A stretch of DNA of 64,000 nt from the NCBI GenBank assembly GCA_030540075.1, contig JAUNWX010000008.1, forward strand, positions 8,638 to 72,637, written 5' to 3'. The stretch is from Lachnospiraceae bacterium (lineage in GTDB: Bacteria > Bacillota > Clostridia > Lachnospirales > Lachnospiraceae). Position 1 is the first letter of the stretch. Every line of letters starts with the position of its first letter. The notes under the pieces were generated by a model. The model ran no database searches. It had not been told where the DNA came from and saw only the letters and a list, made by a program, of their open reading frames with translations. Shown in pieces: positions 1-48,211 of the stretch. Made by a program: the position numbers and the translations under genes.

Positions 1-1020
1 AATGATAAGTTCAGCAATGACCATCCTTCGAATCCATGTTTTTTGATTACGCCACACAAAAGCAATTACCAATGTTATTCCTATCATCGGTAAATAGGCA
101 GCATTACTGGTCCAATCTGCCGATACTACAGAAGTGCTATTTGACATAGTCTCTGCTGGTAAGATCAATGCACGGAGCCATAGCAGAATATCCGTACTGG
201 AAAATGTAAGCGATGAACTGCCATACAATTTATCCGATGAAAGACGATTATTGTTCAATAGTATCATTGCCTGAGGTATAAAGGAAACTGATGCCATAGC
301 AATCCCAAGAATCCCTTCAACCATACACGAAACACAATCTCTTAAGTAATGAATATCTTCAAACAAATAACGGATCAGATAGTACACTGCAAAAAAAAAT
401 ATCTCCATCACGAGTGTACTTGGGCTACCGAGAGCAGTTATAAAAATCGTAAAGGCAAAAACTGCTCTTCTATTTTCAAGTATCAGACCATCTAAGGCCC
501 ATAATGTAAACGGGAAAATAACAAATGCATCATTTATAAAATTAAAAACCAAAACGCAGGCACTGTATCCAGAAAATGCGTACAGAATCGCTCCGATCAG
601 CGCAATATTTTGGTTTCTCACATATCGATGAATATATAAATATGCGCCTGTTCCCATTAATGAGTATCGCAAAACAACGAACCATGGAAGTGCATAAATT
701 ATCATATCCCGTGGAAATAATGCATTTATCAAGGTGGTAATATTAAATCCGCCAATTGAGCTTAAGGATTGCACCGCATCTCCACCCAAATCAAAAAACC
801 AACTCCAGCCAAATTCTCCCGAATAAATTGTGTCATGAATATAGTATAAATAAGGGATCGTTTCAGCATTGAAATCCTCACACATCGTAAGTATTCCACC
901 ATTCATGACAACAAACGGAAAAATGATGATGGTAGATATTATGGCACAAACCCAAAACGCACACCAACTATCGATGTTTTTCCTTTTTTGCCATAGTTTT
1001 GACTGCTTACTTATATTCAC
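1..1020 (-). CDS. YfhO-family (GT-C fold) membrane protein, 5' part; runs off window start
   Basis: Translated by hand from GTG at 1020 (GGGGG RBS) and open to position 1: MNISKQSKLWQ...DFNAETIPY...WSWFFDLGG...ALIGAILYAFSG...DWTSNAAYLPMIG. Multi-TM pattern and motifs typical of YfhO. Absent from the ORF track because it is truncated. Confidence 0.75.
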   Translation of the reverse strand, partial: MNISKQSKLWQKRKNIDSWCAFWVCAIISTIIIFPFVVMNGGILTMCEDFNAETIPYLYYIHDTIYSGEFGWSWFFDLGGDAVQSLSSIGGFNITTLINALFPRDMIIYALPWFVVLRYSLMGTGAYLYIHRYVRNQNIALIGAILYAFSGYSACVLVFNFINDAFVIFPFTLWALDGLILENRRAVFAFTIFITALGSPSTLVMEIFFFAVYYLIRYLFEDIHYLRDCVSCMVEGILGIAMASVSFIPQAMILLNNNRLSSDKLYGSSSLTFSSTDILLWLRALILPAETMSNSTSVVSADWTSNAAYLPMIGITLVIAFVWRNQKTWIRRMVIAELII

Positions 1021-1151
1021 TCTATGCCCCCATCTTTAACAATATATACCACTTTATGGTCCTGGCCCAATGTTTCTGTATTACCAGAATAGCGGTTCAG
1101 AATCGCCCAGAATACTCACAGTTCCATGACAGCTTATAAATCAACAATAGG

Positions 1152-2087
1152 TCACTCATTATTAGTTGCAGATATGTCTACATGTATTAAATCTCTTTTT
1201 TCAAATCTGATTGAGTTCCCCTCACGATTAATAACTTTGTGCACAGAAATATCCAACGATTTATCGCGAGATAAAAGCTCACCATACTTCAAGAAGTCTT
1301 CATCCGAAGCACTTTCACTTATCAAAGTTGATAGTTCTTTTCCAACTTCAGTAAATGGATATTGAGTTATGCTGGCTTTTTCTGGCTTTCCAGAAGACGA
1401 TGCAATCATCATAATCAAATCATGATTAATCATTAGAATTTGAGGTTCATTGCTTATGCTAAGATCAAAGGATATGAATCCGTTATTAAACATCAGGCCT
1501 AACTCATTCAACTTCATAATATTTGCATATGTAATTCCAGCACATTTTAAGTACTCGTTTTCATTGGGCAAAAAATAAACACTTTCGTTCATCACAAACG
1601 AGTGCGAACATATTTTGACAAAAAGCTCCGCATCTTTCTTGCTCAGATTCTTCATAACATCTATCGTCTTAAGCGAGAAAGAAGATGGTTGTGCGATTTC
1701 TCCCGCGAGGATCTTCGCCCACAAATGTTGCATAGCATCATCACTTACACTTCCTGTCGCTTCATAAAAGCGCACAAACCAATCAAAATCGTATTTTGCA
1801 CCAGTATTTATTCTTGGATGATCCTGATAATAACAATCCGCTTTTTTTGCAATAGTTAGAAAGTTATTTGCCTTATAATACTCGGTATAAGTCATTTTTC
1901 CAGAAGTGAGTAAATCATCCGCTACCTCTTTGAATTTACCCGCCTTTATTTTTTCAAATTCATCTGTTTTAGTATTACGTCTAAGAAAGATAGCAGTAAA
2001 AAGAGCGCCAGCAAAAGGCCCAACCGCTGACCCGATACTTTCAAGGTTTCTTGATAATAATGTAATTAGTTCAGTTCCATTCATCAC
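1152..2087 (-). CDS. DUF2806 domain-containing protein
   Basis: DWFVRFYEATGSVSDDAMQHLWAKILAGEIAQPSSFSLKTIDVMKNLSKKDAELF matches the DUF2806 signature as I recall it. Confidence 0.75.
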   Translation of the reverse strand: MMNGTELITLLSRNLESIGSAVGPFAGALFTAIFLRRNTKTDEFEKIKAGKFKEVADDLLTSGKMTYTEYYKANNFLTIAKKADCYYQDHPRINTGAKYDFDWFVRFYEATGSVSDDAMQHLWAKILAGEIAQPSSFSLKTIDVMKNLSKKDAELFVKICSHSFVMNESVYFLPNENEYLKCAGITYANIMKLNELGLMFNNGFISFDLSISNEPQILMINHDLIMMIASSSGKPEKASITQYPFTEVGKELSTLISESASDEDFLKYGELLSRDKSLDISVHKVINREGNSIRFEKRDLIHVDISATNNE

Positions 2088-2182
2088 TAGTCATGCCTTA
2101 TTTCGTAATCATTCAATGTTAACCGAGTAGGCTTACATTGTTATGAAGATTTCAAAAGAAAAATCAACATTTTCTGAATATT

Positions 2183-3997
2183 TTAATCATTCAAGTATCT
2201 TTGCCAAAAGTCTTCTGAATATATTTCATTTTTCATCTTTCGATAATCCTCTATAATACTTGCATTCGATTTTTTATATGAATCAATCGCCTTCTTAAAT
2301 CTTTTCATGAGTACTTTGTATCGAGCTCGATCTCTTAGCAACATATATCCTGTTCGATTGTCCAAATTCACTGCAATTAATCGTTCACGTAAATATATTC
2401 TTTCCGGCGTCCAAACACCATTATAAGGAATCGAGTTAATATCTTTTCGGTATCTCCCTATCCAGAACCTATGTCCATTTCGAGTAATCTTAGAAATAAC
2501 TTTCTGTATGAACGTTCGATTCCCATCAATATCTGGATCACCTAATCCAATATCGGGATTCCCGAATTTTGCTAAAGGTTCCATCTTATGAACAAGTTCA
2601 CTATTCGATTTTAATATTTCTTCTCCATGATCCTCCATAATATACGAAGGCCCCTTGAGATAATCCTCAATTGCACGCAGACACAGTTCAGCTGTGTCAT
2701 AATCCAATCGTATCAAAGCATCTCTAAAATCCTTCGTGGCTTTTCCAATGATATTCACATCATTCATCACACCAGAAATCGCATGGTCTACCAGCAGATT
2801 TCTGTTAACCTGATAGAAATCCATTGCAGCATTGTACTTTCCTGTAAAGCCCATATGCCATACGCAGATGCCGTTCATAGTAATAAAGCCCGGTTTACAC
2901 CGTAGTCCATATTCAATATCATCTCCACGCACAAACACAGGAACAGGCAGTCCCTTTTCTTTTATCGTATCCATCGGTATGCAGCAATACCACCATGCCG
3001 CATAATTATGATCGTCATCGACAGGAAACTCTTTTTCATTATATAGATTATCACTTAATAATTCATGATTCAGCTCTTCGCCCTTTAATGGAATAAAATG
3101 CCCATCCTTAGAAACCATTCCGATGTCTTCTTTTTGAATCTCGACATTTTCCATATAGAGCATTGCGCCACTGATAAAGTTTTTCTGATACTCCTCCTTC
3201 AAATGTTTTAACAAATAATATGTTTTTCGAATGCTCTCCGACTGCATATTAACATCGTCATCCATCAACAGTACATTGGTGATGGGTTCTTTCTGGTGCA
3301 TACACTCGATCATCCCTCGTGCAAAGCCGCCAGCTCCGCCTGTATTTTTATTAGGATGTAAAAAAATCCGATGATCTGAAGGAAAATTTTGTTCTGTAAG
3401 TGTATTTCCATTGTCCACAACATGTATAAACAGATGTTTTGCAACTTCATCACCTGAACATAACAATTCATCATAGAGTAATCTTATATTACGCGTAATA
3501 TATTTTTCCTTATGACATGTGGTGGAGCTAAGTGCCAGATTCGTGTGATTATCCGATGCGAACTCACCAGAATAATGCCCTGATTGTATTATGCAATCAC
3601 TTAAGGTTTCAATTTCGAAGCCAAGCATCATGTCATCAGTATCCGGCATAATTGCAGTGATTTCTTCAAATGAAGAACTACGAAATATCGCTTCACTATA
3701 AACCTTGATGTCGGTAGACCCATTCACCAGGTTGCACCCTATAAGCTTTAGAGAAAACTCCCCCTTAATGCGCAAAGCCAATTCAACATTCGAAACATCC
3801 GTATACTTTTTCCATTTTCTATTAGAAAAGCCGTTAAAGTAAGTATTAAACCCCACGTGTGAGAATTTGGGGAATCCAACACAAAGCGTCTGATTTTGAT
3901 AATAATCTACGCCTCTTACGCCTCTATAGTATAGTGTATAATGTTCCTTTAACATTTCCTCTTTAGGAAATACTAAATTTTGGATTACCTCTCTCAT
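2183..3997 (-). CDS. Glycosyltransferase family 2, GlfT2-like (putative galactofuranosyltransferase)
   Basis: VVDNG, NTGGAGGFARGM, LLMDDD, YAAWWYCCIP, RGDDIEYGLR motifs; long N-terminal extension. Confidence 0.8.
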   Translation of the reverse strand: MREVIQNLVFPKEEMLKEHYTLYYRGVRGVDYYQNQTLCVGFPKFSHVGFNTYFNGFSNRKWKKYTDVSNVELALRIKGEFSLKLIGCNLVNGSTDIKVYSEAIFRSSSFEEITAIMPDTDDMMLGFEIETLSDCIIQSGHYSGEFASDNHTNLALSSTTCHKEKYITRNIRLLYDELLCSGDEVAKHLFIHVVDNGNTLTEQNFPSDHRIFLHPNKNTGGAGGFARGMIECMHQKEPITNVLLMDDDVNMQSESIRKTYYLLKHLKEEYQKNFISGAMLYMENVEIQKEDIGMVSKDGHFIPLKGEELNHELLSDNLYNEKEFPVDDDHNYAAWWYCCIPMDTIKEKGLPVPVFVRGDDIEYGLRCKPGFITMNGICVWHMGFTGKYNAAMDFYQVNRNLLVDHAISGVMNDVNIIGKATKDFRDALIRLDYDTAELCLRAIEDYLKGPSYIMEDHGEEILKSNSELVHKMEPLAKFGNPDIGLGDPDIDGNRTFIQKVISKITRNGHRFWIGRYRKDINSIPYNGVWTPERIYLRERLIAVNLDNRTGYMLLRDRARYKVLMKRFKKAIDSYKKSNASIIEDYRKMKNEIYSEDFWQRYLND

Positions 3998-4080
3998 AAA
4001 AATCTCACCTCAAATAACTATTGCACTGCCTGGCGCATAATATGCAAACAAGAGCGACCTGTCATCAATATATTTTAATC

Positions 4081-5110
4081 TTAGATATTACATATCAAAT
4101 CAGAAACATTCTTTGATGCCATTTTTAAATTCTCCGCAATAAGGAACGTTAACCAGAAAACTGCACCAAGACAAAGCAGAATTTGCCATAACCGACTTTC
4201 TCCATTTAACCAATATGGCATTACAAGAATAAAAATACGATGATGAACAAGATATATTTCATAATTATACTTACAGATATATCTTGTCACTGTATTATCA
4301 ACGCGTATATTGTATAGAATAATAAATGATAAGCAGGATGCAAAAAATACAGGTAGATAATTGAATCCGAGTATTGTAGCTGGATTTAAAATCCAGATTA
4401 ATACACAAGCAAAAACTGCCAGAACCTCAATTTGTTTCGTGATCAAGTTTCTATATTTATCAAATATCATTCCTAACCAAAAATACATGATACCGTTGGT
4501 AAATGAGAAATAACCTCCTCCACCTGATAGAATTTGATATTTCAAGTTGAATACAAAAATTGTTCCTAGAACGATAGTAGTATATACTCCCCCCCCTGTT
4601 CGCTTTCAGTAACTTCCTGAGCAAAGGAAACAGACTATACACTACAAGAATCACACTCGTAAACCATTCTCCTGTAATCCAAACGGTGTTGATACCAATC
4701 CTGTTCCACAAATCACCAGCAAAGTTAAAACCAAAAAATGAAATTATACAACCTAGAAGATTCTCTTTTACATAGTTTATGTATCCACCATTTGAAATAC
4801 TGGAAATCAATAATGATACAACAAAGCTAATCCATAACGGAATACATATACGAATAATTCGTTTTTTGAAGAAAACAATAGTACTGAATTTTTCTTCATC
4901 TCCATAGTTATGCCAGAGAAGCGCTCCGGAAAGAATGAAGAATAGTCCGACTCCCAATCCACCGAAGCCGAACCCTCCATGGTCTATTACAGACATAAGT
5001 AAAGGATAAACCACGATACTATTCTCCGTACACGTTGTATAGAAATGCCATAATAATATCAACATCATGGCTAAGAATCGTATAAAATCATATCCCTTAT
5101 CTCTTTGCAT
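4081..5110 (-). pseudogene. Acyltransferase family 3 (O-acetyltransferase) split by a one-base frameshift in a G8 tract
   Basis: ORF 4460-5110 (YDFIRFLAMMLILLWH, GVGLFFILSG, FFKKRIIRI, GEWF) and ORF 4081-4545 (YEIYLVHH) join into one 342-aa multi-TM protein if the G8 run at 4589-4596 is G7 or G10. Confidence 0.8.
4589..4596 (-). repeat. Homopolymeric G8 tract (C8 on +) at the acyltransferase frameshift
   Basis: + strand tatatactCCCCCCCCtgttcg (C run 4589-4596, preceded by ct); minus strand AAC AGG GGG GGG AGT. Confidence 0.85.
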
Positions 5111-5146
5111 AGTTCTTCACCCTCACCGAATCATGCCGCAACATAC

Positions 5147-8100
5147 TCAGTCTTTAATAATTCCTATTTTTCTTAAAATCTTGCCTGGAGCCTTTACAAT
5201 CGCATGTCCAATTTTGTAGGAATGACTTTCATAGACCTTGTGTAAGTCTCTTTCCAGTTCCTGCTCGTGAATACGATTATGTAAATTAGCTCTTCTTAGC
5301 TCATTATTCCAAAAATCCAGTAATGAATACTCTTCTGAATTATTTAAATCATCTTCAAAAGGTATCGCTTTAAACATGTGCTTATCGAATTCTTTTGGAA
5401 AATGCATATACATCTCGTATGGTGCCGCCAGTTCTGTTTTATTGTAGTAGACATATTTCGTATATTTACCCATCTTTTCAATAAAATCAGAAACAAATTG
5501 TATTGCGTTACTCTGCAGCGTTTCGGTAATAAGCAGTGCTGCATAAGGCATATCAAATTCTCCAAAAACCGGTTTGATACCCCCCCTCTCAGTAAGCTTA
5601 TATCCAACTGTTGACGGTCCTCGTTCCATCAAGCAATGTTCGCGAATAGCACCTGTAATAACTGGCTTCACCGGATAGAAGCAGTAACATTTTATACCAT
5701 ACTTTTTCTGTCTGTTTTCCGCAAAGCCATCCCCATTCGTATGAAGATACAACGAACCAACTGGATACCCCAGTAAATTGGAAAGTGCCGCCTCTGGTCT
5801 ACCAGAATACCCCACATCAAAAATGAAGTCTCCCTGTTGAAATACTTGGTCAAAATATGTTTTTAAATCCTGCTTATATTGATTTAACAGTTCTAATGAA
5901 AATGCACTATCCTTAATGAATTTTAAGAAGTTTTCATATTCAGTATAATCACTGAAACACCTGTCTTTATGAAAATTCAAGGCTCTCGCTTCTTCCCATA
6001 GTTGCTCTTCCTTCATCGATACCGCTGGTTTTAAGTACTGGTATATTTTTTCAGGTGTAGCTGCAAATGGGCTCAGTTTTCTTCCAAGTGAGAAGATATC
6101 ATCTTCAACATTTACGTCGCATAATACGAGTGCTTTTCGAGATAAACGAATATAATCACTTCTTATCGAAGTGTCATTAATTAAGTCGAAGGCTTCCTTA
6201 ACCAGCCATCCGTCCCTGGCGACAAAATGCACACATGGTATATTATGTTCTATTGCCTGTTCCTTAACCCATTGTGCGATTGCCAATACATAGCCGCCAA
6301 TAACCTGGTAACCAATATAGCGCGGATCGTCATTATAATCCGATTCCGGATTAAACGAAACAAAAGGATTATCAAATGCCTTATTACACCCTAAGGCAAT
6401 CATTGCTCTTGTAGATGGAGAACTATCAAATAGCATTCCATAATCCTGTATCATTCCGCTATTTCTATAAATACGGCGGTACGCATCTCCGCCATAGAAC
6501 GGAGAATAATGCATAAAAATATCAGAACCCTTCGGCAAGTGCTCCGCCCGTATCCCTAACGATCTAGGCATTTCTACATCACTTTGCCAATTATCTCCCA
6601 AGTGAATCAACGACTTGGCATTTTTAATATCCAAATCCTTTAAAATATATTTAAAAAGATTACCCGTTGCCTTTGTAAGCATAATGTCGGAAGAAAGATA
6701 TAGTTTACTATATCCTCTATATCCATTTTTATCCAGAATTCCTTCTATAAAATCCTTCGGCAGATACATGTCGGAAGTGATGATAATTCTCTTTCCGGCA
6801 TCTTTGGCAAGTTGAAACAGTTCCTTTCCAAGTTGTCTCGGATAAAGTACCTGCTGTTCTATAGCAAGTTCTTCTTCCTTCATCTTTTCAATTCGTTCTA
6901 TGGATAAACCACAGTTTTCGCTTATATGATGATATATTTGTTCGTATGTTATATCTTCATTAGATGGGCTTTTAATCTTTTCTTCTACTCTTGCTCCATC
7001 TTCCGCATTTTTTCGAATCATCGCAAAATCAACAAACGACGCTATATCTTCATTCATTTTATTGGAGAGTATATCAAACAAATCCGTCGGATAAAGAAAT
7101 GGGCGAAGTAATAGTGTATCAAAAATATCAAAACTGACTGTATCTGTTTCGGCACTGACAATTTCTCGTTTAATTTGCTGATAATGGTCATAAACACCAT
7201 CCAATCTTGTTCTTTGTTCATAGAAAAGGTCAATTTGTTCTTTAGATACGGTATAGCCAAAACTTTGAGCTATTTTTCTGCTATAATAAGTTTCATTAAT
7301 TCTGTACAAATCTCGCTGTAAAATAGCTACAGCTGTATTTTTATATTTATTTAACAATTTTTTGTAGATGTCGCTACTATAGTTTGATTCTTCAATTAAT
7401 TCTTCAGCAAATAAGAAAGCGCCCTTCACATCATTTATGTAATTAAAACATGCTTTTTTATTTCTAAATGCACTAGTCATTCCGCCAGAATGCTTATAAT
7501 AATAATAATAAGCATTCTGAACATTCGTCACTTTCTGAGCATGCATCCATAAATCAAATGAGAAGGCAAAATCTTCCCACATCTGCATGCGACCATGCGA
7601 TTTTGCATATTTATTAAAATCCGGAAGGCATCTTTCCCATAATTCTCTAGTATAAATTTTATTCCAAATCAGCGACCAGCTAAAGCAAGATCCCCTCTGC
7701 TCTAAAAAAGAATGCAAAATCTCATCACCAGTCAGTTCAAAATCTTTAATTCTAAAAGGATCAAGATTCAAGTATTCTTTTACTCCATCCTCATATGCAA
7801 AGCACCATTCTCCCACAACCATATCCGAGTTCGTATCTATAGCTTTACGTAGCAGTGTACGAATCCAGTCATATGATAAGAAATCATCTGCATCAACAAA
7901 CAGAATGTACTCTCCCGTTGAAGCTTCTACACCTGTAATTCTGGTCTCAAACAATCCAGTATTCATCTCATGTCGAATCACTCGAACACGGCCATCCTGC
8001 TGGCTGTACCTACTAACAATTTCAACATCTTCTTTATTCGGTGTGCAATCATCTACTATAACAACTTCCAGATTATTGTAGGACTGCTTTAAAATGCTGT

Positions 8101-8219: not shown

Positions 8220-8966
8220 TCAACGCTCTTTCTCAAACTGCATATACTTTTCTGCAATTTCATCAACGCTTCCTGTTTCCTGTACGCTTCCTTTATTTAG
8301 CCACAAAGCATGATCACACACCTTTTTCACAGATTCCATATTATGCGACACATACAACAGTGTCGTTCCTGCGTCGCGCATATCAGTCATGCGTTTCTCA
8401 CATTTCTGCTGAAATGCATAATCACCGACTGCAAGCACCTCATCGCAGATGAGGATGTCTGGCCGAACTATCGTGGCGATGGCGAAGCCGAGACGTGCCG
8501 CCATACCGGACGAATAGTTCTTAATCGGCATATCCAGAAAGTCTCGAAGCTCTGCAAAATCTACAATTTCATCAAAATGCTCTTCCATGAACTTATGGTT
8601 ATAACCCAGAACTGCACCATTTAAAAAAATGTTCTCTCTGGCTGTCAACTCCCCATCAAATCCTGCACCTAATTCGATGAGCGGTGCAATCGAACCATTC
8701 ACCGTCACGGTTCCTTTGTACGGTTTCAGAATACCGGAAATCAGCTTCAGCATCGTAGATTTTCCGGAGCCATTGGTACCCACCAGACCCCAGGCCTCTC
8801 CCTTTTTCACTTCGAAGCTTACATCCTTTAATGCAAGAAACTCCTGGAACATGAGTTTCCCCTGAACAAGCTTCACGAAATACTCTTTCAGGTTGTCTAT
8901 GCGCTCTGTAGCCATGTTGAAGCGAACCGTTGCATGGTCCACCTTTACTGCAATATCTGTATCCAC
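8220..8966 (-). CDS. wzt: Polysaccharide ABC exporter ATP-binding subunit (Wzt/RfbB/TagH-like), no C-terminal carbohydrate-binding module
   Basis: GTNGSGKST, YSSGMAARL, DEVLAVGD; 248 aa; follows Wzm. Confidence 0.9.
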   Translation of the reverse strand: MDTDIAVKVDHATVRFNMATERIDNLKEYFVKLVQGKLMFQEFLALKDVSFEVKKGEAWGLVGTNGSGKSTMLKLISGILKPYKGTVTVNGSIAPLIELGAGFDGELTARENIFLNGAVLGYNHKFMEEHFDEIVDFAELRDFLDMPIKNYSSGMAARLGFAIATIVRPDILICDEVLAVGDYAFQQKCEKRMTDMRDAGTTLLYVSHNMESVKKVCDHALWLNKGSVQETGSVDEIAEKYMQFEKER

Positions 8967-32153: not shown

Positions 32154-33617
32154 TTACTGTTTTTGATTACATCTCACATATTTCTGGTCGTGGCTTCTCG
32201 GTTTTTCCGGAATCGTAAGTCGCACCAGTCCTTTTTTTACGAGCGGATAGATGTAGGTCTGCATCGCATACGTAACGGTTTTCAGCCCCAGAAATTCTGC
32301 GATTTCATCTTTACTTCTCGGCACGCTTAAATAATCCATAAGGGAGGCATCGGTTTCCCGGGACTTAAAATCCTGTTCTTTCGAACCATCGTTAGAACGA
32401 TCGTTATACAGTATAACCGTAAATGTTCCGCGCTCGTCTAAGAATACCGGTTCATCCAGTCCATACTTTTCCATCGTCTTTCGAATCGTCGGTATTCCAG
32501 AATATCGATTCTCCGTCAAACCCAGGATTTCCATCGCATTGACGAGTACCGGATTTCTCGTATCCGGCTGCTTTTTTCCAAGCTGATCCAGGCGAAGTCT
32601 TCCATAAATCCCGCCCGGATTACTTATTTCAATTCGATCCGGGAACATCTTTATCTGAATCGGCATGCCCTCCGTGTGAATACTGTAGTCTCTATGCACG
32701 AGCGTATTCAGGATCGCCTCTCTGATCGCCGTAACAGGGTATTCGGTTCGGTCCTCCCGCTTTCCTGTAGAAGGATCAATGATCGTCTTCGTCCGCATAT
32801 TTTTACGCACAAACGCAATCGCCTGGTCAAGCATCTCCGGAATCGTGCCCTCTATTCTCTGATTATCGATAAATCGTTCACCCGTTTCCCCGAGTTCACC
32901 GATTTCATCCCCCGGCACGACGACAGCCGTGATACAAAGCTGTGGGAAGAACGCCTGTGGGTATCTGCAAAAAAGCAAAACGGCGCTTAACGTAAGCTCT
33001 TCACTTCTCGTCAGGCTCATAAGCTCATAGATCGTCTTATCCGGAAGTTCACTTAAATTTTTCTTTTCTTCTTTGAGTTTATCAATGTATGCGCCCAGCA
33101 ATGCACCATCGATCACGTCAAAGGATGCTCTCGGAACACTGCGTATGTCATCCTGATACTTCTTTCTGAAGGACTCATAGCTGTAGATTTCATATTCTGT
33201 CATCGGTTCATCGCTGTCACCCACCCGGATATACGAGCCTTTGAGACGTCCGCTCCCCTTGTAATAGCAAGGGCGATCTGCAAGATCTATACCCGGTATC
33301 TCCGCCGATACGAAAAACTTCCCTTCCTTCTCAGCCACTGTAAGAAGTGGTCTGACCGCCGGTTCCATCTGAAGGCACTGATTATTGATCTGCTTCTGAA
33401 TGTCCTGCGCATCATAAACGCCACATTCTTCGAAGTCATGCTCTTCATCCACGCCAAAAATGATTACACCACCATCATCCTGATTCGAAAAGCTCGACAA
33501 AGAATCATAGAGACGCTTCGGACACCCCTGCTTCGCAGCTTTCAGTTCAAGTGTTTGCGTTTCATATTTGCTTTTCTGAATAAGTTCAAGTTTTTCCAGC
33601 AGTTCTTCACTTGTCAT
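32154..33617 (-). CDS. AlbA_2 (Schlafen-like) + HATPase_c_4 protein with C-terminal HTH
   Basis: LELKAA, SSFSNQDDGGVIIFGVDE, YIRVGDSD, EYPVTAIREAILNTLVHRDYS, IEISNPGG, RNPVL, EKPRSHDQKY. Confidence 0.85.
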   Translation of the reverse strand: MTSEELLEKLELIQKSKYETQTLELKAAKQGCPKRLYDSLSSFSNQDDGGVIIFGVDEEHDFEECGVYDAQDIQKQINNQCLQMEPAVRPLLTVAEKEGKFFVSAEIPGIDLADRPCYYKGSGRLKGSYIRVGDSDEPMTEYEIYSYESFRKKYQDDIRSVPRASFDVIDGALLGAYIDKLKEEKKNLSELPDKTIYELMSLTRSEELTLSAVLLFCRYPQAFFPQLCITAVVVPGDEIGELGETGERFIDNQRIEGTIPEMLDQAIAFVRKNMRTKTIIDPSTGKREDRTEYPVTAIREAILNTLVHRDYSIHTEGMPIQIKMFPDRIEISNPGGIYGRLRLDQLGKKQPDTRNPVLVNAMEILGLTENRYSGIPTIRKTMEKYGLDEPVFLDERGTFTVILYNDRSNDGSKEQDFKSRETDASLMDYLSVPRSKDEIAEFLGLKTVTYAMQTYIYPLVKKGLVRLTIPEKPRSHDQKYVRCNQKQ

Positions 33618-42337: not shown

Positions 42338-43105
42338 TCACAGGATGTACTCGGTGACGACCTTGATGGCGAGGAGGACGAGTACGACGAGGATCGACGG
42401 GCGGACGATTTTCATGCCGTTTTTCATCATGAGGCCGGCGCCGATGTAGTTGCCGATCATGTTGCAGATGGCGCATGGGATGCCGAGCAGGAAGACGGTC
42501 TGGCCGTGCAGGATGAAGATCACGAGGGAGGTGATGTTCGTCGTCAGGTTGATGACCTTCGTCTGGCCATTGGCGGTTTTGATGCCGAGCTTCGCGAAGA
42601 CGGTGAAGGCGATGATGAGGAAGGTGCCGGTGCCCGGGCCGTAGAAGCCATCATAGAAGCCGATGATGAGGGCGGCGAGGATGGCGGTCACGTAGACCTT
42701 CGCGCTATCCGTCGATGCTTCTTCGACGTTGTCGTGGAAGATGTGGCGGTTCAGGACGATGAAGGCGGTCACGGGCAGGACGACGAGCAGGATTGTGACG
42801 AGGACCTGTTCCGGGATGAGGAGGCTGATGCGGGCACCGATCGAGGAGCCGATAACAGCCGCAACGATAGACGGGATCGCGAGCTTCCAGTTGACGAGGC
42901 CTTCGCGGATGAAGCGGACGGTCGCGACGGTGGTGCCGCAGCAGCTGGAAAGCTTGTTGGTGCCGATGGCGTAATGCGCCGGGAGGCCGGCGAGCAGGTA
43001 GGCCGGAAGGGAAATCAGACCGCCGCCTCCGCCGATGGCGTCGACGAGACCGGCGAGAAAAACGAGCGGACAGCAGATAAGATAGGTTAGAAATGTGATA
43101 TGCAT
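42338..43105 (-). CDS. Sulfite exporter TauE/SafE (TSUP) family transporter
   Basis: AGLVDAIGGGGGLISLP, AIGTNK, GFYDGFYGPGTGTF, NLTTN. Confidence 0.9.
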   Translation of the reverse strand: MHITFLTYLICCPLVFLAGLVDAIGGGGGLISLPAYLLAGLPAHYAIGTNKLSSCCGTTVATVRFIREGLVNWKLAIPSIVAAVIGSSIGARISLLIPEQVLVTILLVVLPVTAFIVLNRHIFHDNVEEASTDSAKVYVTAILAALIIGFYDGFYGPGTGTFLIIAFTVFAKLGIKTANGQTKVINLTTNITSLVIFILHGQTVFLLGIPCAICNMIGNYIGAGLMMKNGMKIVRPSILVVLVLLAIKVVTEYIL

Positions 43106-43459
43106 AGTGGTGGTACCTCGATGTATGGTGGGGTTTGGCGGGGTGGCGGGCGGTGGTGCCACGCGGCAGGGCGCGGAGCGGTGCGGGCGTGGGCGCAGCA
43201 GCGGCGCGGACGGCAGGCAGCTGCGTCAGGCGCGACAGCGGCGCAAGTGGCAGGCACGAAGCCATCCAGGTTCTGTTCGTCTGCATTGGCCCAGCTGAGC
43301 AGGCCCGAACAATGATGTTCATGTTATACTTTTCTTTTCGCAAGCGCAAGCCTTAAAATGGATATGATTTCTATAGCCGGGAGTTGGGGTGCTACGAAGA
43401 AGCTGTTCAGAGTACTTCCGAACGTGTTTGCAGGATAGTGAAGGAGGCGCACGCAAAAA

Positions 43460-43835
43460 TAGACACGATATTAAATTTTTGCGATACGTGTATACAAAAT
43501 AGACACGAACATGCATTTTCAAAATATATGTCTACTGTTTTTCTTCCCGATGAGGTAATTTGAAGAGAAAACTATACACGGATGGCCCTATTTAAAAATC
43601 GTGTATAGAAAAAGGAGTAAAGAAGCATAGTTTCACTTACTTTTCGGGTTTTAACTATACACGATTTCTAAATTCTGTCTTTAGTGTATATTTTCATCTG
43701 AAAACCTCTGTGAAACCCTGAAAATCAGTATACACTATTTTTCATATCGACGATCCGTGTCTATAGCCCGCAATCGTGCCTTATAAATTCAAGCCAGAAC
43801 TATACACGCAGCATCTATTTTGCAATTCCTGTATA
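43460..43835. repeat. Array of six 35-bp quasi-palindromic sites TA(T/G)ACACG-N19-CGTGT(A/C)TA
   Basis: Left arms at 43460, 43500, 43573, 43656, 43729, 43801; every spacer is exactly 19 nt. Confidence 0.9.
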
Positions 43836-44088
43836 GTTTTCGCAGATACCCTCCCGGGCGACTGGATCCTCCACATGCGGTAAAGATTTTGTGATCCCTG
43901 TATAGTATAAACAGATATCGCCCGGGACGACAGGATTGCCAACACTCAGCAGCCGTCTTATGATCCCTGTATCATTAAAAGCACTCCTAATAAAAAGCAG
44001 CCTGGATCGAGATAAGCTGCTCTCAAGCAGGATATCATCACCCAGACTGCTTCCTTCCATCTGTCTATCTTTCTGTCTGAATCATCCG

Positions 44089-44901
44089 TCACCCGACGTC
44101 CGTGCTGCCTTTGCCGAAATAGTACTCCAACAGTTGCTGTACGTAGATCTCGTCCAATGGCATTTCCTGCGTTTCAAACGACATGATCAGGTTTACGCCA
44201 GGATAAATTCCATTATTCAGGTATGTCCGCATCTTCTTTATAAAATCCTGCTGATAATCCTCATCATCCATCATGCCGAAGTGTTCATAATAATAGATAT
44301 CCCCACTTTTCGGGTCTACGATCGTAAAGTCTGGATAATTTGGTTTTCTGGTATTTTCCAGTTCCAGCCTGCATTCATAACGGAATGGCAATTTCGCATT
44401 TCTCAGAAGATTATAAATCGAGCGTTCTGATTTGGAACGGACAAATTCACCGCTCACCGTCGGTACATTCAGATGTCCCGGATTCATCGGATTCTTTTCG
44501 TAATCCGCACAGGCCCACGCTTTCAGATTCTCCGGCAGATCATACAGAAATGCTTGTGTCAATTCACGAAGCGCTCCCGAGTGCTCCAGTATGTATTCGG
44601 CATGCTTGATTTTTTGCAGGCTCTTCAAGCAGCACTCATAGGCTTCGATCTGTTGCTGAATATCTTTTAATTTCGCCTGATAAACCCGCTTCAGCGCCAA
44701 CGTCTCCGCCAGTTTCCTTTCTTTTTTCGATAAATATTTCGGCTTTTGCGAACCCGGCGCGCGATAGAGCCAGCTCCAGCCCTGTGGATTCACCCGGAAG
44801 TGAATCGTTCCCTCCGGCGCCGTTTCCAGCCAGCGTTCATACTGCGCGCGTGCGCTCCGCAACCGCTCGATTTCATATTTCATTTTTTCAGATAAATCCA
44901 T
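44089..44901 (-). CDS. Hypothetical protein with a C-terminal PD-(D/E)xK/DUF559-like nuclease motif set
   Basis: AGGAGG RBS before MDLSEK; coiled N-terminus; VRSKSE, PFRYE, YPDFTI, YYYEHFGMMD, KMRTY. Confidence 0.65.
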   Translation of the reverse strand: MDLSEKMKYEIERLRSARAQYERWLETAPEGTIHFRVNPQGWSWLYRAPGSQKPKYLSKKERKLAETLALKRVYQAKLKDIQQQIEAYECCLKSLQKIKHAEYILEHSGALRELTQAFLYDLPENLKAWACADYEKNPMNPGHLNVPTVSGEFVRSKSERSIYNLLRNAKLPFRYECRLELENTRKPNYPDFTIVDPKSGDIYYYEHFGMMDDEDYQQDFIKKMRTYLNNGIYPGVNLIMSFETQEMPLDEIYVQQLLEYYFGKGSTDVG

Positions 44902-44962
44902 ATTCCTCCTTATAGTCAAGTGATTTCTACACAAAGCGGGCAAATCCTGCCGCTGATTCGAC

Positions 44963-47962
44963 TTATGTCTGCTCTTCGCGAACGAACAGCGTCGCAACCC
45001 AGCCTGCGGCGGCTGCGCTGAAGTAAGCGGTCGGATAGTCCACACCACCCTGGCTCTTCCGGGTGCCGAGGGCAATGCCGGCGGCCTCTCCTTTGGTGGT
45101 TGGGAGGTAGGCCTGGCGCGGCCGGCCGTTGACTCTGTATTCGCTTAATTCGAGGTAGCCAAGTTCCGCCAGCTTTCGGTCGATGGTCGCACCATACAGC
45201 TTCTTTCGTCCCTGGTCCTGCTGCTCTGCTTCCTCGACGAGCGTGTTCAGAAGCGCAGCGATTTCCGGCGAGCGCAGGCCGTCCGCACAGTGGAAGGAGG
45301 CGGCTTCTGCCACAGTCAGGAAGAAGTCCTGCTTTTTCTTTACCTTCTTCCGCGTCCGCTGCTGCAGGTACTTCTCCTCGAGGAAGGCGAGCAGGACATC
45401 ATCCGGGATAAAACGGTATTTCGGATTCTGCTGCGATTCTGACCTTGCTTTCGGCACGGACTTTATAACAGGTGCAGGCACACCGGCATCCGTCAGGCCT
45501 GCACACGTGCTGTTTTCCTGATGCCCCGGATCAGCCGCGAATCCCATGCTTACAGAACCTACCGTACTATCCTGTATCTTTCCCGACTCATTTTCACAGA
45601 AACCTGCAAAGTTCCCAAGGTCAGCCGCGAATCCCATGCTTGCACAGGCTCTGGTACCATCCTGCAGATCCTGCTGAATCTCCTCCGACACGTTTTCATA
45701 GAAGTCTGCGACACGTGCAGGGTCGAGGGCTTTCCGGATCTCATCGGTAAAGGCTTCGTAGTGGAGTTCCAGCTTCCGCTGGCCGACACCGTGGATGCGC
45801 GCAAATTCCTCGCGGGTGAGCGGGAGCATACGGCACATCTCCACCAGTGACTTATCGGTGAAAATCTGGTACGCCTGCACACTCCGTTCCATCGCGAGCC
45901 GCTTCCGAAGCGCTTTCAGATTTCCGAGCAGCTGCGTCCGCATCTCAGGCGAAATCTCGAGACGGGCACTTTCAAGCAGCCGAAGCTGCTGCGTGTCGGG
46001 CTGGTATGCGCTGGTCCTGACCTGTGTGGCACACCCGGTTTCATTCGGAAGCTTTTGTGCATCGGCCTCGCCATCGAGAATCCGGGCAGAAGCATTGCCC
46101 TCAGATGCCGTGACATCCGTGAGACGACCGTCCGCTGGGCACTCCGGCACACGTGACGCCGGCCACGGCGCAGAGGACGACAGCGCAGGCGCTTCTCCCG
46201 ACGTCTGTGCGGACTGACCGAGCGCCGTGGCCATCGCATTTTCATTTTTCTGATATTCGACTTTTCGCATCGCCATGATCCTTCCTGTGCGCTTCGCATG
46301 CGCATCATAATCGAAATGGTGCTGCTTTTCGCCCGCCTTCCACAGGCGGATCTTCCGCCCGACATCCATGTCCGTCTCGAGCTGGTGCAGATGTTCGCGC
46401 ATCCGTTCCTGAAGGCCCATAGTATCGCTGATGCCATAGCGGTCCTCCTCGAGGAAGTGCTCTGGATTGCAGTTCACGCAGCAGCTGTCACGCGGGATGG
46501 AAAATGCGCGGAAATTCTGCACGCGAATTCCCGGCTCCCACAGCTCCCAGGGATCCGTGCGGAGATGATCATATTTATAGGCCTGGTTTCGCATGTGCTC
46601 CCGATCGGCATAGCGTATGAAGACATGCTGCTTCTCCGCGCGCTTCAGCTGCATCGACACCTTCTGAACGCGGTTTACCGGATAGCGCCCGGACTGCCGG
46701 ATCGTCCGCAGGCTCTCGTCGACCGGCAGCTCTGCGCTCGTCAGCACTCGATTCCGCGACGGAAGCGTGATGACCTCGTAGTCAGCGGACGTTTCATCTG
46801 CCTGCTCAACATAATTTTTCATAAATGCGCGCAGACACTGATGCGTCATCGCGTAGCGGCGCATCGCTTCAAACTGCCGCTTCACCTGCGCGACGACTTC
46901 CGGATACGCCTGGTAGCCGAGCGTCACCTTCCCGAGCTTCGTGCGCTGGAGCTCGAAGTCGCGCTCGTTCGCAAGGAGAATGCACTCGGCCGGCAGGCCG
47001 TCACATCCCGCATGGACGACTTCCTGATAATAATGGTCGAGACTTTCCGGCATCGTGTAGTGCAGCACGAAGCGCACATCCGACCGGTCCAGCTCGAGAA
47101 AAGGATCCGGCGTCACGACGAGGATCCGGGCGCCTGCGCAGAAAGCCCGGGCATTCGCCATCCGCTCCTCGCGGGTCAGACCTGCGTGGTAGGATAGCGC
47201 CGGGAAACCGCTGCGATTGAGCAGCTGTGCGATGTGCTCCGTCAGACGATGCTCTGTGCAGTAGATGATGCCTGCTTCGTCTTCATGGCGGCGTAGAAAA
47301 TCGAGGAGAAACGGTGCCTTGCGCTGTGGCCGATGCACCGACAGAAAGAGATTCAGGCGTTCAAACTGATGCCGGATGAGAAGTGGATGCTGAAGTGAGA
47401 AAAAGTGCCCGATGTCCTGCTCCATCTGCCGCGTTGTCGGCAGTGCCAGTGCAAGGACCGGTGGACGGGAGTGCGCTGCCTGTCGCTCGAGATCCTTCAG
47501 CAGAAGTGGGATCGCGTAGTAGAGCGGCTGGAAATGTGGTGCGTGGATCGAACAGATCTGGGCTTCATCGATGACGATCAGGGAAATCGATGCCTGAGAG
47601 ACGAGGAAAGAGCGGATTTTAGACTTCTCCAGAAGACCTGGTGAGACAAAGAGTATTCGGAAATGATGTCGTCGGACGCGCTCCCGCTGCGCGGCCATGA
47701 CATAATCCGTCGTGCCGGAATGCAGCATCGCCGCAGGGATACCATCCTGCTCAAGCATAGTGATTTCTTTTTCCATGCGCTCTTTAAATGAAGAAATGAT
47801 CAGTATGATTCCCGGAAGCTGCCCCACCAGCCGTCGGTAGCAGTCCAGACGAAGCTGACCGACCGGCGGCATCGCCAGCACATCCCTGCCGCTTTCCAGC
47901 GCGGAAAGGATTCGCGCATAGGCCGAGGCCAGAGACATTTCAGATCGATGAACATCGGACAT
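44963..47962 (-). CDS. RecQ-like protein with degenerate helicase motifs, split RQC Zn site, HRDC domain and C-terminal extension
   Basis: Colinear with RecQ (GRDVLA, IDEAQ, GIIYC, YHAGL, VRFVLH, YYQE, HRDC IFTDKSLVEM...GVGQRK), but Walker A and motif VI are substituted. Confidence 0.82.
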   Translation of the reverse strand: MSDVHRSEMSLASAYARILSALESGRDVLAMPPVGQLRLDCYRRLVGQLPGIILIISSFKERMEKEITMLEQDGIPAAMLHSGTTDYVMAAQRERVRRHHFRILFVSPGLLEKSKIRSFLVSQASISLIVIDEAQICSIHAPHFQPLYYAIPLLLKDLERQAAHSRPPVLALALPTTRQMEQDIGHFFSLQHPLLIRHQFERLNLFLSVHRPQRKAPFLLDFLRRHEDEAGIIYCTEHRLTEHIAQLLNRSGFPALSYHAGLTREERMANARAFCAGARILVVTPDPFLELDRSDVRFVLHYTMPESLDHYYQEVVHAGCDGLPAECILLANERDFELQRTKLGKVTLGYQAYPEVVAQVKRQFEAMRRYAMTHQCLRAFMKNYVEQADETSADYEVITLPSRNRVLTSAELPVDESLRTIRQSGRYPVNRVQKVSMQLKRAEKQHVFIRYADREHMRNQAYKYDHLRTDPWELWEPGIRVQNFRAFSIPRDSCCVNCNPEHFLEEDRYGISDTMGLQERMREHLHQLETDMDVGRKIRLWKAGEKQHHFDYDAHAKRTGRIMAMRKVEYQKNENAMATALGQSAQTSGEAPALSSSAPWPASRVPECPADGRLTDVTASEGNASARILDGEADAQKLPNETGCATQVRTSAYQPDTQQLRLLESARLEISPEMRTQLLGNLKALRKRLAMERSVQAYQIFTDKSLVEMCRMLPLTREEFARIHGVGQRKLELHYEAFTDEIRKALDPARVADFYENVSEEIQQDLQDGTRACASMGFAADLGNFAGFCENESGKIQDSTVGSVSMGFAADPGHQENSTCAGLTDAGVPAPVIKSVPKARSESQQNPKYRFIPDDVLLAFLEEKYLQQRTRKKVKKKQDFFLTVAEAASFHCADGLRSPEIAALLNTLVEEAEQQDQGRKKLYGATIDRKLAELGYLELSEYRVNGRPRQAYLPTTKGEAAGIALGTRKSQGGVDYPTAYFSAAAAGWVATLFVREEQT

Positions 47963-48211
47963 CTCGAGTAGTTCCTTTCGCTCGGAGTGTAATAATCATA
48001 ATCGCAACGACGAAATCAGAAGCCCGATTTCAGAATTAGGAAAACAGAAAACAGAAATCAAGGCCAGGTATACACTGTGACGATGGCTCGCATAGAATAT
48101 CTGCATGTATTCTTAAATAACTTCATCTTTTTGCATATACATATCGTAATATAAGTTTTTACTTTTGGCAATATCAACAAACAGACTATATTTGGTTTTT
48201 GCACATCTCAA

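Follow-up and report, generated by a model that had tools for sequence, protein, structure and literature searches.

A RecQ-derived gene with degenerate ATPase motifs, a probable pseudohelicase, in a subclade of one gut Lachnospirales genus

We analyzed a 64,000-nucleotide stretch of DNA from a Lachnospiraceae bacterium (NCBI GenBank assembly GCA_030540075.1, contig JAUNWX010000008.1, forward-strand positions 8,638 to 72,637; hereafter the window, in whose coordinates all positions are given), and in particular a gene at 44963-47962 on the minus strand that we call pseudo-recQ. The original prediction, made from the letters of the window alone, described it as a full-length RecQ paralogue with all of its ATPase motifs substituted, retained as a catalytically dead DNA-binding scaffold, decoy or sensor beside a nuclease-like gene. 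Open reading frame calls and translation gave an uninterrupted frame of 999 codons plus a stop on the minus strand (the plus-strand reading is riddled with stops), and the six motif strings that had been listed were all located in its translation. A Shine-Dalgarno-like AAGGA lies 9 nt 5′ of the ATG. The product, which served as the reference protein (window genome: G000 in the genus comparison), matched the NCBIfam hidden Markov model TIGR01389 (recQ) with E = 2.5e-81 and 273.9 bits, short of the curated cut-off of 640.2, and TIGR00614 (recQ_fam) with 183.1 bits, again short of the cut-off (219.8). RecQ cores in the PDB were matched at E ~1e-35. Pfam recovered Helicase_C and HRDC in the 999-residue protein, and no DEAD/DEAH domain. 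Homology to RecQ is thus clear and far beyond chance, even when both curated cut-offs are missed.

The ATP-handling motifs are all substituted, as had been read by eye. The canonical MPTGGGKS of motif I is PPVGQLRL (residues 32-39), SPLISLM of motif Ia is SSFKERM (57-63), DEAH of motif II is DEAQ (132-135), LTAT of motif III is LALP (172-175; aligned, TAT becomes LPT), ATNAFGMGID of motif V is VTPDPFLELD (VTPDPFLE at 283-290), and QETGRAGRDG of motif VI is QEVVHAGCDG (313-322; GRAGRDG becomes VHAGCDG). Alignment with canonical RecQs places Arg38 at the Walker A lysine and Leu39 at the serine, replaces two P-loop glycines by Gln and Leu, and adds a loss that the original prediction had not named, motif 0 (FGYxxFRxGQ) being wholly absent. 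Both motif VI arginines are gone in the protein of the window genome; motif IV (YHAG) and D132-E133 of motif II are kept. The nucleotide-handling residues by which a RecQ helicase is recognized (motif 0 Gln, Walker A GK[ST], DExH, motif VI Arg) were accordingly not found in this protein.

The degenerate strings are themselves conserved family-wide. Across 126 proteins of the family, MPPVGxLRLDCY stands at motif I in 118, VIDEAQICS at motif II in 117 and an identical motif V (VVTPDPFLELDR) in 110. Among the nearest canonical cluster representatives, a strict regular expression found Walker A, DExH and motif VI together in 133 of 144; on alignment, GKS is present in each of the eight exceptions whose sequence reaches motif I, and the other three lack the N-terminus. 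Two of these 11 canonical representatives, P0169 and P0260, keep Walker A with NEAH or DDAQ as motif II and with altered motifs V/VI; partial decay of RecQ motifs may recur in other lineages.

The helicase core comprises two RecA-like domains and a zinc-binding subdomain. RecA-like domain 1 (47363-47935, minus strand, as are all parts of the gene; residues ~10-200) carries the degenerate motifs I (31-42), Ia (55-63), II (132-135) and III (170-177), and RecA-like domain 2 (46943-47362; residues 201-340), matched by Pfam Helicase_C at E = 2.1e-10, has kept motif IV and carries the degenerate motifs V (VTPDPFLELDR) and VI. In the zinc-binding subdomain (46469-46942; residues 341-498), the first cysteine, C376, stands ~118 residues from C494, C495 and C498 (CCxNC), against ~17 in canonical relatives, and the spacing is CCxxC where canonical proteins have CxxCxxC. 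These four cysteines are each at least 90% conserved across pseudo-RecQ and canonical rows, in agreement with the prediction that the Zn cysteines are kept, split by an insert of ~115 residues; they are putative zinc ligands. The insert itself is family-specific and ~106 residues long (46490-46807; residues 386-491), and it is missing from the short basal form found in genome G063. An Atlas search for its origin (residues 386-576) returned only RecQ_Zn_bind clusters, with structural rows at a template modelling score of 0.30 or less; the best such cluster (score 0.90, 141 shared features) is a lead only.

Downstream of the core in the protein, a conserved helical segment (46238-46468; residues 499-575) occupies the position of the RQC/winged-helix domain of canonical RecQ. 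Pfam RQC had no match in the 999-residue protein; among canonical RecQs of the genus, that of G011 also lacks RQC and that of G018 has it. A low-complexity linker (45992-46237; residues 576-657), variable in length among relatives, leads to the HRDC domain (45713-45991; Pfam HRDC E = 8.6e-16 at residues 677-742; PDB 1wud HRDC E = 1.6e-9), and a second low-complexity linker (45368-45712; residues 751-865), with a two-copy SMGFAAD remnant, leads to the C-terminal alpha/beta domain (44966-45367; residues 866-999), which is common to the canonical RecQs of the genus. The HRDC and C-terminal domains had both been predicted to be kept, and both are.

We built an AlphaFold2 model on a 116-row alignment. 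Its mean predicted local distance difference test score (pLDDT) over residues 1-999 is 71, with ~90 in the core (10-390), ~96 in HRDC (660-750) and ~90 in the C-terminal domain (880-995), 29-73 in the insert and the helices after it (397-575), and <50 in both linkers (576-657 and 751-865). Foldseek superposed the modelled core on 4tmu, 6crm and 1oyw (E = 7e-27 to 8e-26, root-mean-square deviation 2.5-2.7 Å, 378-380 columns), so the RecQ catalytic-core fold, with two RecA-like domains and a zinc subdomain, is predicted to be present despite the loss of its motifs. Modelled alone, the C-terminal domain folds into three helices and a beta-hairpin (pLDDT 84.6). A PDB profile search with it gave nothing below E = 0.17 and Foldseek nothing below E = 0.33; a VIA wide search gave RacA/MerR-like DNA-binding domains at a best Z of 4.7, which is within the noise range stated for the tool, and a winged-helix-like DNA-binding role of this domain is a prediction that serves only as a lead.

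Low-complexity or tandem-repeat inserts, all in frame, distinguish the relatives at seven sites at least, which lie at the N-terminus, between motifs II and III and between IV and V, in the zinc subdomain, in both linkers and inside the C-terminal domain. The repeat expansions are seen only in relatives, the window protein being short at most of the variable sites; Tandem Repeats Finder reported no array within its gene and a sole array at 48040-48057. Protein length ranges accordingly from 708 to 1393 residues in genomes and from 891 to 1268 among near-full-length metagenomic proteins.

We surveyed 50 genomes of the genus, counting as RecQ-less those with no match at E <= 1e-20. The degenerate form, confirmed by alignment, is present in 11 (G000, G002, G008, G016, G019, G021, G022, G055, G056, G057 and G063), a canonical RecQ above the cut-off in 6, only weak superfamily 2 (SF2) matches (~85-95 bits, frames of 470-590 residues) in 6, and no RecQ match in 26; G009 has canonical-looking RecQ fragments at contig ends. 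Pseudo-RecQ and canonical RecQ occur together in none of the 50. In the window genome itself (2.31 Mb in 69 contigs, 93.6% complete), a search with the recQ model found no second RecQ-like gene, the next matches scoring ~25 bits. The word paralogue in the original prediction does not hold, since the gene is the sole RecQ-like gene of this assembly and the suggested check for a canonical recQ elsewhere found none. One genome with canonical RecQ, G047, has two more RecQ-like frames, both below the cut-off, at G047:C23:20699-21748 (locus L035; 1001 residues, 196.9 bits, 22% identity to the window protein) and at G047:C24:25719-26789 (665 residues, 271.5 bits).

Pseudo-recQ occupies the same chromosomal position in 10 of 11 loci, with TauE, orf325 and a thiamine pyrophosphate (TPP) enzyme on one side and an operon of ABC2 permease, ATP-binding cassette (ABC) ATPase and NPCBM genes on the other; the eleventh contig, of 6.3 kb, is too short to show flanks. 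In G011, canonical recQ is found ~5 kb away from this ABC operon, the products of which are 57-69% identical to those of the window. The last 120-130 residues of pseudo-RecQ also have counterparts in canonical RecQs of the genus, with 34.7% identity over 118 residues in the case of G011. By position, pseudo-recQ corresponds to canonical recQ. None of the 5 RecQ-less genomes of the genus that were tried yielded the flanking ABC2 permease.

In a FastTree reconstruction of 51 rows, a branch with an SH-like support of 100 set apart all 12 pseudo-RecQ rows, on a stem 1.06 changes per site in length; the tree carries a long-branch warning and does not resolve which canonical RecQ is sister to the clade. 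The clade has a single origin, with further motif decay in steps. The basal G063 protein (708 residues, zinc-site insert absent) has VPPVWASRARCY as motif I, NDAH as motif II and QETDRAGWDG as motif VI. In G021, which has the insert, motif I is MPPIGELRSQCY and both DEAH and QEVGRAGRDG are kept. The remaining genomes share the insert, MPPVGxLRLDCY and DEAQ, with QE[LV]VHAGRDG as motif VI in all except G000, G008 and G016, where it is QEVVHAGCDG. Aligned in this way, the crown group acquired DEAQ and then lost the motif VI arginines one by one. Such a graded order is what one expects if the ATPase had been lost first, with motifs 0 and I, and the other motifs had drifted later. The clade is narrow yet well sampled. 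A library of 1.84 billion representatives, clustered at 50% identity, contains only about six that belong to it (P0122-P0127), and all later matches are canonical RecQs at 23-38% identity; more than 120 clusters at 90% identity were pseudo-RecQ among the matches listed (70-97% identity to the query).

The ratio of nonsynonymous to synonymous substitution rates (dN/dS, pairwise NG86) was 0.21-0.28 for the whole gene in 11 pairs, and its regional values, from G000 against seven relatives, differ strongly along the protein. Purifying selection acts on RecA domain 2 (residues 201-340, 0.00-0.17), on the zinc subdomain with its insert (residues 341-396, 0.14-0.35; insert region 397-502, 0.11-0.12 in 5/7 pairs and 0.20 and 0.30 in the other two), on HRDC (666-750, 0.00-0.10 in the six closer pairs and 0.22 against G021) and on the C-terminal domain (866-999, 0.12-0.30). 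The segment 503-575 gave 0.00-0.16, RecA domain 1 (1-200) 0.20-0.35, the first linker (576-665) 0.29-1.09 and the second (751-865) 0.17-0.44, with one pair saturated. Seven flanking genes ranged from 0.01 to 0.27. The canonical RecQs of the genus gave 0.03-0.06 in RecA domain 1, 0.02-0.07 in RecA domain 2, 0.04-0.11 in HRDC and 0.07-0.11 over the whole gene (6 of 10 pairs usable, four with G058 being saturated, and only 4 usable for HRDC). Constraint on RecA domain 1 is therefore relaxed about five-fold relative to active RecQs of the genus, and that on RecA domain 2 and HRDC is roughly that of working RecQs. The frame is open in 10 of 11 genomic copies, at 708-1393 codons; the G019 copy (locus L027) is interrupted by a single in-frame TGA, at the codon that aligns with G560, leaving frames of 496 and 755 residues. 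The per-domain analysis and stop count thus bear out a gene that is retained, with none of the dN/dS near 1 over the gene that decay would have produced.

We propose that pseudo-recQ encodes a lineage-specific RecQ-derived pseudohelicase that neither binds nor hydrolyzes ATP, has no motor or unwinding activity, and is nevertheless retained as a folded protein, a reading to which we assign a probability of roughly 70%. It combines descent from an active helicase family, degenerate catalytic motifs and retention by selection, and its best explanation is descent from the chromosomal recQ in a subclade of one gut Lachnospirales genus. Because the ATP motifs are lost while selection keeps the protein intact, it is probably a non-motor DNA-binding pseudohelicase; if ATP handling is lost, motor and unwinding activity would therefore be lost with it. 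Of the scaffold originally predicted to be retained and catalytically dead, the retention and the motif loss are borne out by observation, and the death of the ATPase is what the motifs suggest.

Several points weigh against this reading. The loss of ATPase activity is deduced from sequence alone, and the arginine at the Walker A lysine position together with the retained D132-E133 gives a low probability that the protein still binds some nucleotide. Model confidence is poor in the insert and in segment 499-575. Overall dN/dS lies at the upper end of the range of the neighboring genes, RecQ seems dispensable in the genus so that selection on pseudo-recQ could be for something marginal, and the TGA of G019 could be a real nonsense allele at the start of decay, or a sequencing error. 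A search of public sequencing runs found no evidence of expression, with no RNA run listed and 12 DNA rows each covering 0.11 or less of the sampled words.

Could the protein still be an ATPase or helicase with noncanonical motifs, Arg38 for instance serving in place of the Walker A lysine? The core fold predicted at high model confidence, the retained D132-E133 and YHAG, and the strong constraint on RecA domain 2 would all suit an active enzyme. However, seven motifs are hit together, including the absent motif 0 and a P-loop that has lost two glycines and its Ser/Thr, the histidine of DEAH is lost with both motif VI arginines in the window genome, the losses accumulate in steps as expected without selection on the ATPase, and it is RecA domain 1 in which constraint has weakened about five-fold. 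In SF2 enzymes, hydrolysis is abolished when the Walker A lysine becomes arginine or the motif VI arginines are changed. We regard continued activity as very unlikely. We give even less credence to a dying gene, that is, a pseudogene slowly decaying after RecQ became dispensable in the genus, for which one may cite the 26 of 50 genomes where RecQ was not found, the TGA of G019, the many variable low-complexity inserts and linkers that are near neutral in some pairs (dN/dS up to 1.09). Against it, frames of 708-1393 codons have stayed open in 10 of 11 genomes at synonymous divergence (dS) up to ~1.5, the folded domains have dN/dS of 0.00-0.17, like neighboring housekeeping genes, every indel seen preserves the reading frame, the degenerate motifs are themselves conserved, and the promoter-proximal 240 nt are conserved as well.

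A further alternative makes pseudo-RecQ the DNA-sensing, non-motor partner of the protein encoded next to it, in a defence or repair pair with a layout like that of Hachiman HamAB. The adjacent gene (44089-44901, minus strand, 270 residues) lies downstream of pseudo-recQ on the same strand with a gap of 61 nt. Its C-terminal domain is PD-(D/E)xK-like, matching the PADLOC candidate PDC-S68 at E = 3.3e-25 and, weakly, HEAT_CxxC_PD-DEXK at E = 1.1e-4; it has no sequence match in Pfam, NCBIfam, PHROG or the PDB, and a 'PDF ... EHFG' stretch can be picked out in its sequence by eye. The adjacency pointed out in the original prediction stands, with the gene beside the dead RecQ in 9 of 11 genomes, and the two genes with the promoter region are inverted together relative to the same flanks in 3 of 10 informative genomes (loci L026 of G002, L027 of G019 and L031 of G055, compared with window positions 43000-49000). 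One distant relative of the protein has a UvrD_C_2 domain. The pairing itself fares less well. The gene is missing from that place in G022 and G063, and members of its family turned up in 45 of the 301 genomes searched from the order. Several genomes gave 7 or 8 counted matches, several copies contain stops, and the window genome has a second, broken copy (G000:C58:19777-20577). We fetched 24 foreign loci of the family (L047-L070) and scanned the flanks of 22 (44 flanking frames), which are unrelated housekeeping genes (tRNA synthetases, RimP, SufB/D, MutY-like, PriA, RecD2, aldolase and others), the copies standing singly between them. The alleles beside pseudo-recQ differ by dS of 1.6-2.2 where the flanking genes differ by 0.15-0.25, so the gene has a history of its own. 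Membership in a dispersed, multi-copy family makes a specific partnership with pseudo-RecQ unlikely; the gene resembles a selfish or mobile nuclease gene that stands on its own, a candidate with no family annotation.

Upstream of pseudo-recQ, the proximal ~240 nt are 74-83% conserved in relatives and include a promoter-like site at 48148-48177 on the minus strand (TTGATA-18-TATATT, 10/12 matches); the ABC operon upstream has a strong terminator at 48563-48596. Imperfect palindromic units of ~45 nt (CTATACACG ... CGTGTATAG) are clustered at 43559-43841 and 48211-48550, which are the two intergenic regions flanking the pair formed by pseudo-recQ and the nuclease-like gene. The window has 8 occurrences of a 9-mer of the palindrome where 0.28 would be expected, 7 of them in these two regions; the whole genome has only 15, about the base-composition expectation. 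The same clusters are found in G016 and G057, which also have the nuclease allele type of the window genome. The units could be operators or recombination sites.

We compared pseudo-RecQ with known systems, beginning with bacterial RecQ cores (E. coli, C. sakazakii and D. radiodurans; 1oyw, 4tmu, 4q47; TIGR01389). It resembles them in the superposition of its modelled core at 2.5-2.7 Å and in its HRDC domain, and its locus and C-terminal domain match the canonical recQ of the genus; it differs in the absent motif 0, in the degenerate motifs I/Ia/II/III/V/VI, in missing both curated cut-offs, in the lack of a detected RQC/winged helix, in the ~106-residue zinc-site insert and in its disordered variable inserts. 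PADLOC models of DpdF (E = 1.1e-72) and PsyrT (E = 2.4e-44) matched it with a generic RecQ-family likeness, no stronger than that to a housekeeping RecQ. None of what we take to be the partner genes of the Dpd (DpdF) and PsyrTA (PsyrT) systems is among the neighbors scanned, which are TauE, a TPP enzyme, sugar-modification genes and ABC transporters, and the only defence-library match next to pseudo-recQ is the PD-(D/E)xK-like gene. Membership of Dpd or PsyrTA was rejected, as the RecQ-like gene is not embedded, within the neighborhood scanned, among partners of either system.

The closest published precedent that we found is the PriA pseudohelicase of Deinococcus radiodurans, which is reported to bind DNA and DnaB while lacking both ATPase and unwinding activity (PMC4504706). 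Both are bacterial SF2 DNA-repair helicases by descent, with motifs degenerate in one lineage and the gene retained. They differ in family, in that activity loss was measured for PriA and is read here from the motifs, and in the added domains and much narrower distribution (a subclade of one genus) of pseudo-RecQ. Utp25p, reported as a eukaryotic DEAD-box pseudohelicase of ribosome assembly (PMC9539457), likewise has an SF2 helicase fold without catalytic motifs; unlike pseudo-RecQ, it is eukaryotic and derives from an RNA helicase. The literature search found no bacterial RecQ with dead motifs and no RecQ pseudohelicase, subscription journals lying outside its coverage.

If pseudo-RecQ is a pseudohelicase, it would act without ATP as a DNA-binding or protein-recruiting scaffold, making its contacts through HRDC, the C-terminal domain and the new zinc-subdomain insert, with the disordered repeat-rich linkers as mere spacers. 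By analogy with D. radiodurans PriA, substrate recognition and partner contacts may have been kept. A bolder extension, which we offer tentatively and hold to be rather doubtful, is that it is the first RecQ-derived bacterial pseudohelicase, exapted as an ATP-independent factor that recognizes DNA structure or sequence and stands in for a true RecQ. HRDC, the putative winged-helix-like C-terminal domain and the new insert would then recognize DNA, possibly the palindromic CTATACACG-type repeats on either side of the two-gene module; alternatively, the protein might keep branched DNA in place for RecJ/RecFOR. The window genome contains recJ and recO.

Elsewhere in the window, positions 1-8000 form a low-GC stretch (35-37% GC) adjoining a region of ~55-63% GC and may be a foreign island. 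A gene at 32154-33617 on the minus strand encodes a 487-residue protein with Schlafen AlbA_2, HATPase_c_4 and Fic-like C-terminal domains; it falls within a patch of 44% GC that is embedded in a high-GC polysaccharide-synthesis cluster, and its product has weak PADLOC matches (E = 1e-17) to pAgo-associated models. An Rfam gathering scan of the whole window returned 0 matches, and neither pseudo-RecQ nor the 270-residue protein matched PHROGs.

RecQ helicases are defined by their motor, and here the motor appears to have been discarded while the remainder is still under selection. The case would separate the ATP-independent roles of RecQ, such as the recognition of DNA structure by HRDC and the recruitment of partners, from unwinding. 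The forms found here also make a graded series, which starts at canonical RecQ, passes a short form in which Walker A is dead and then a long form where DEAH and motif VI are kept, and ends at the fully degenerate form; it amounts to an evolutionary dissection of the passage from helicase to pseudoenzyme. Annotation pipelines are likely to name such genes 'RecQ family ATP-dependent DNA helicase'. The putative RecQ-derived pseudohelicase is confined to a subclade of one genus, and the genomes that carry it probably have no RecQ helicase activity.

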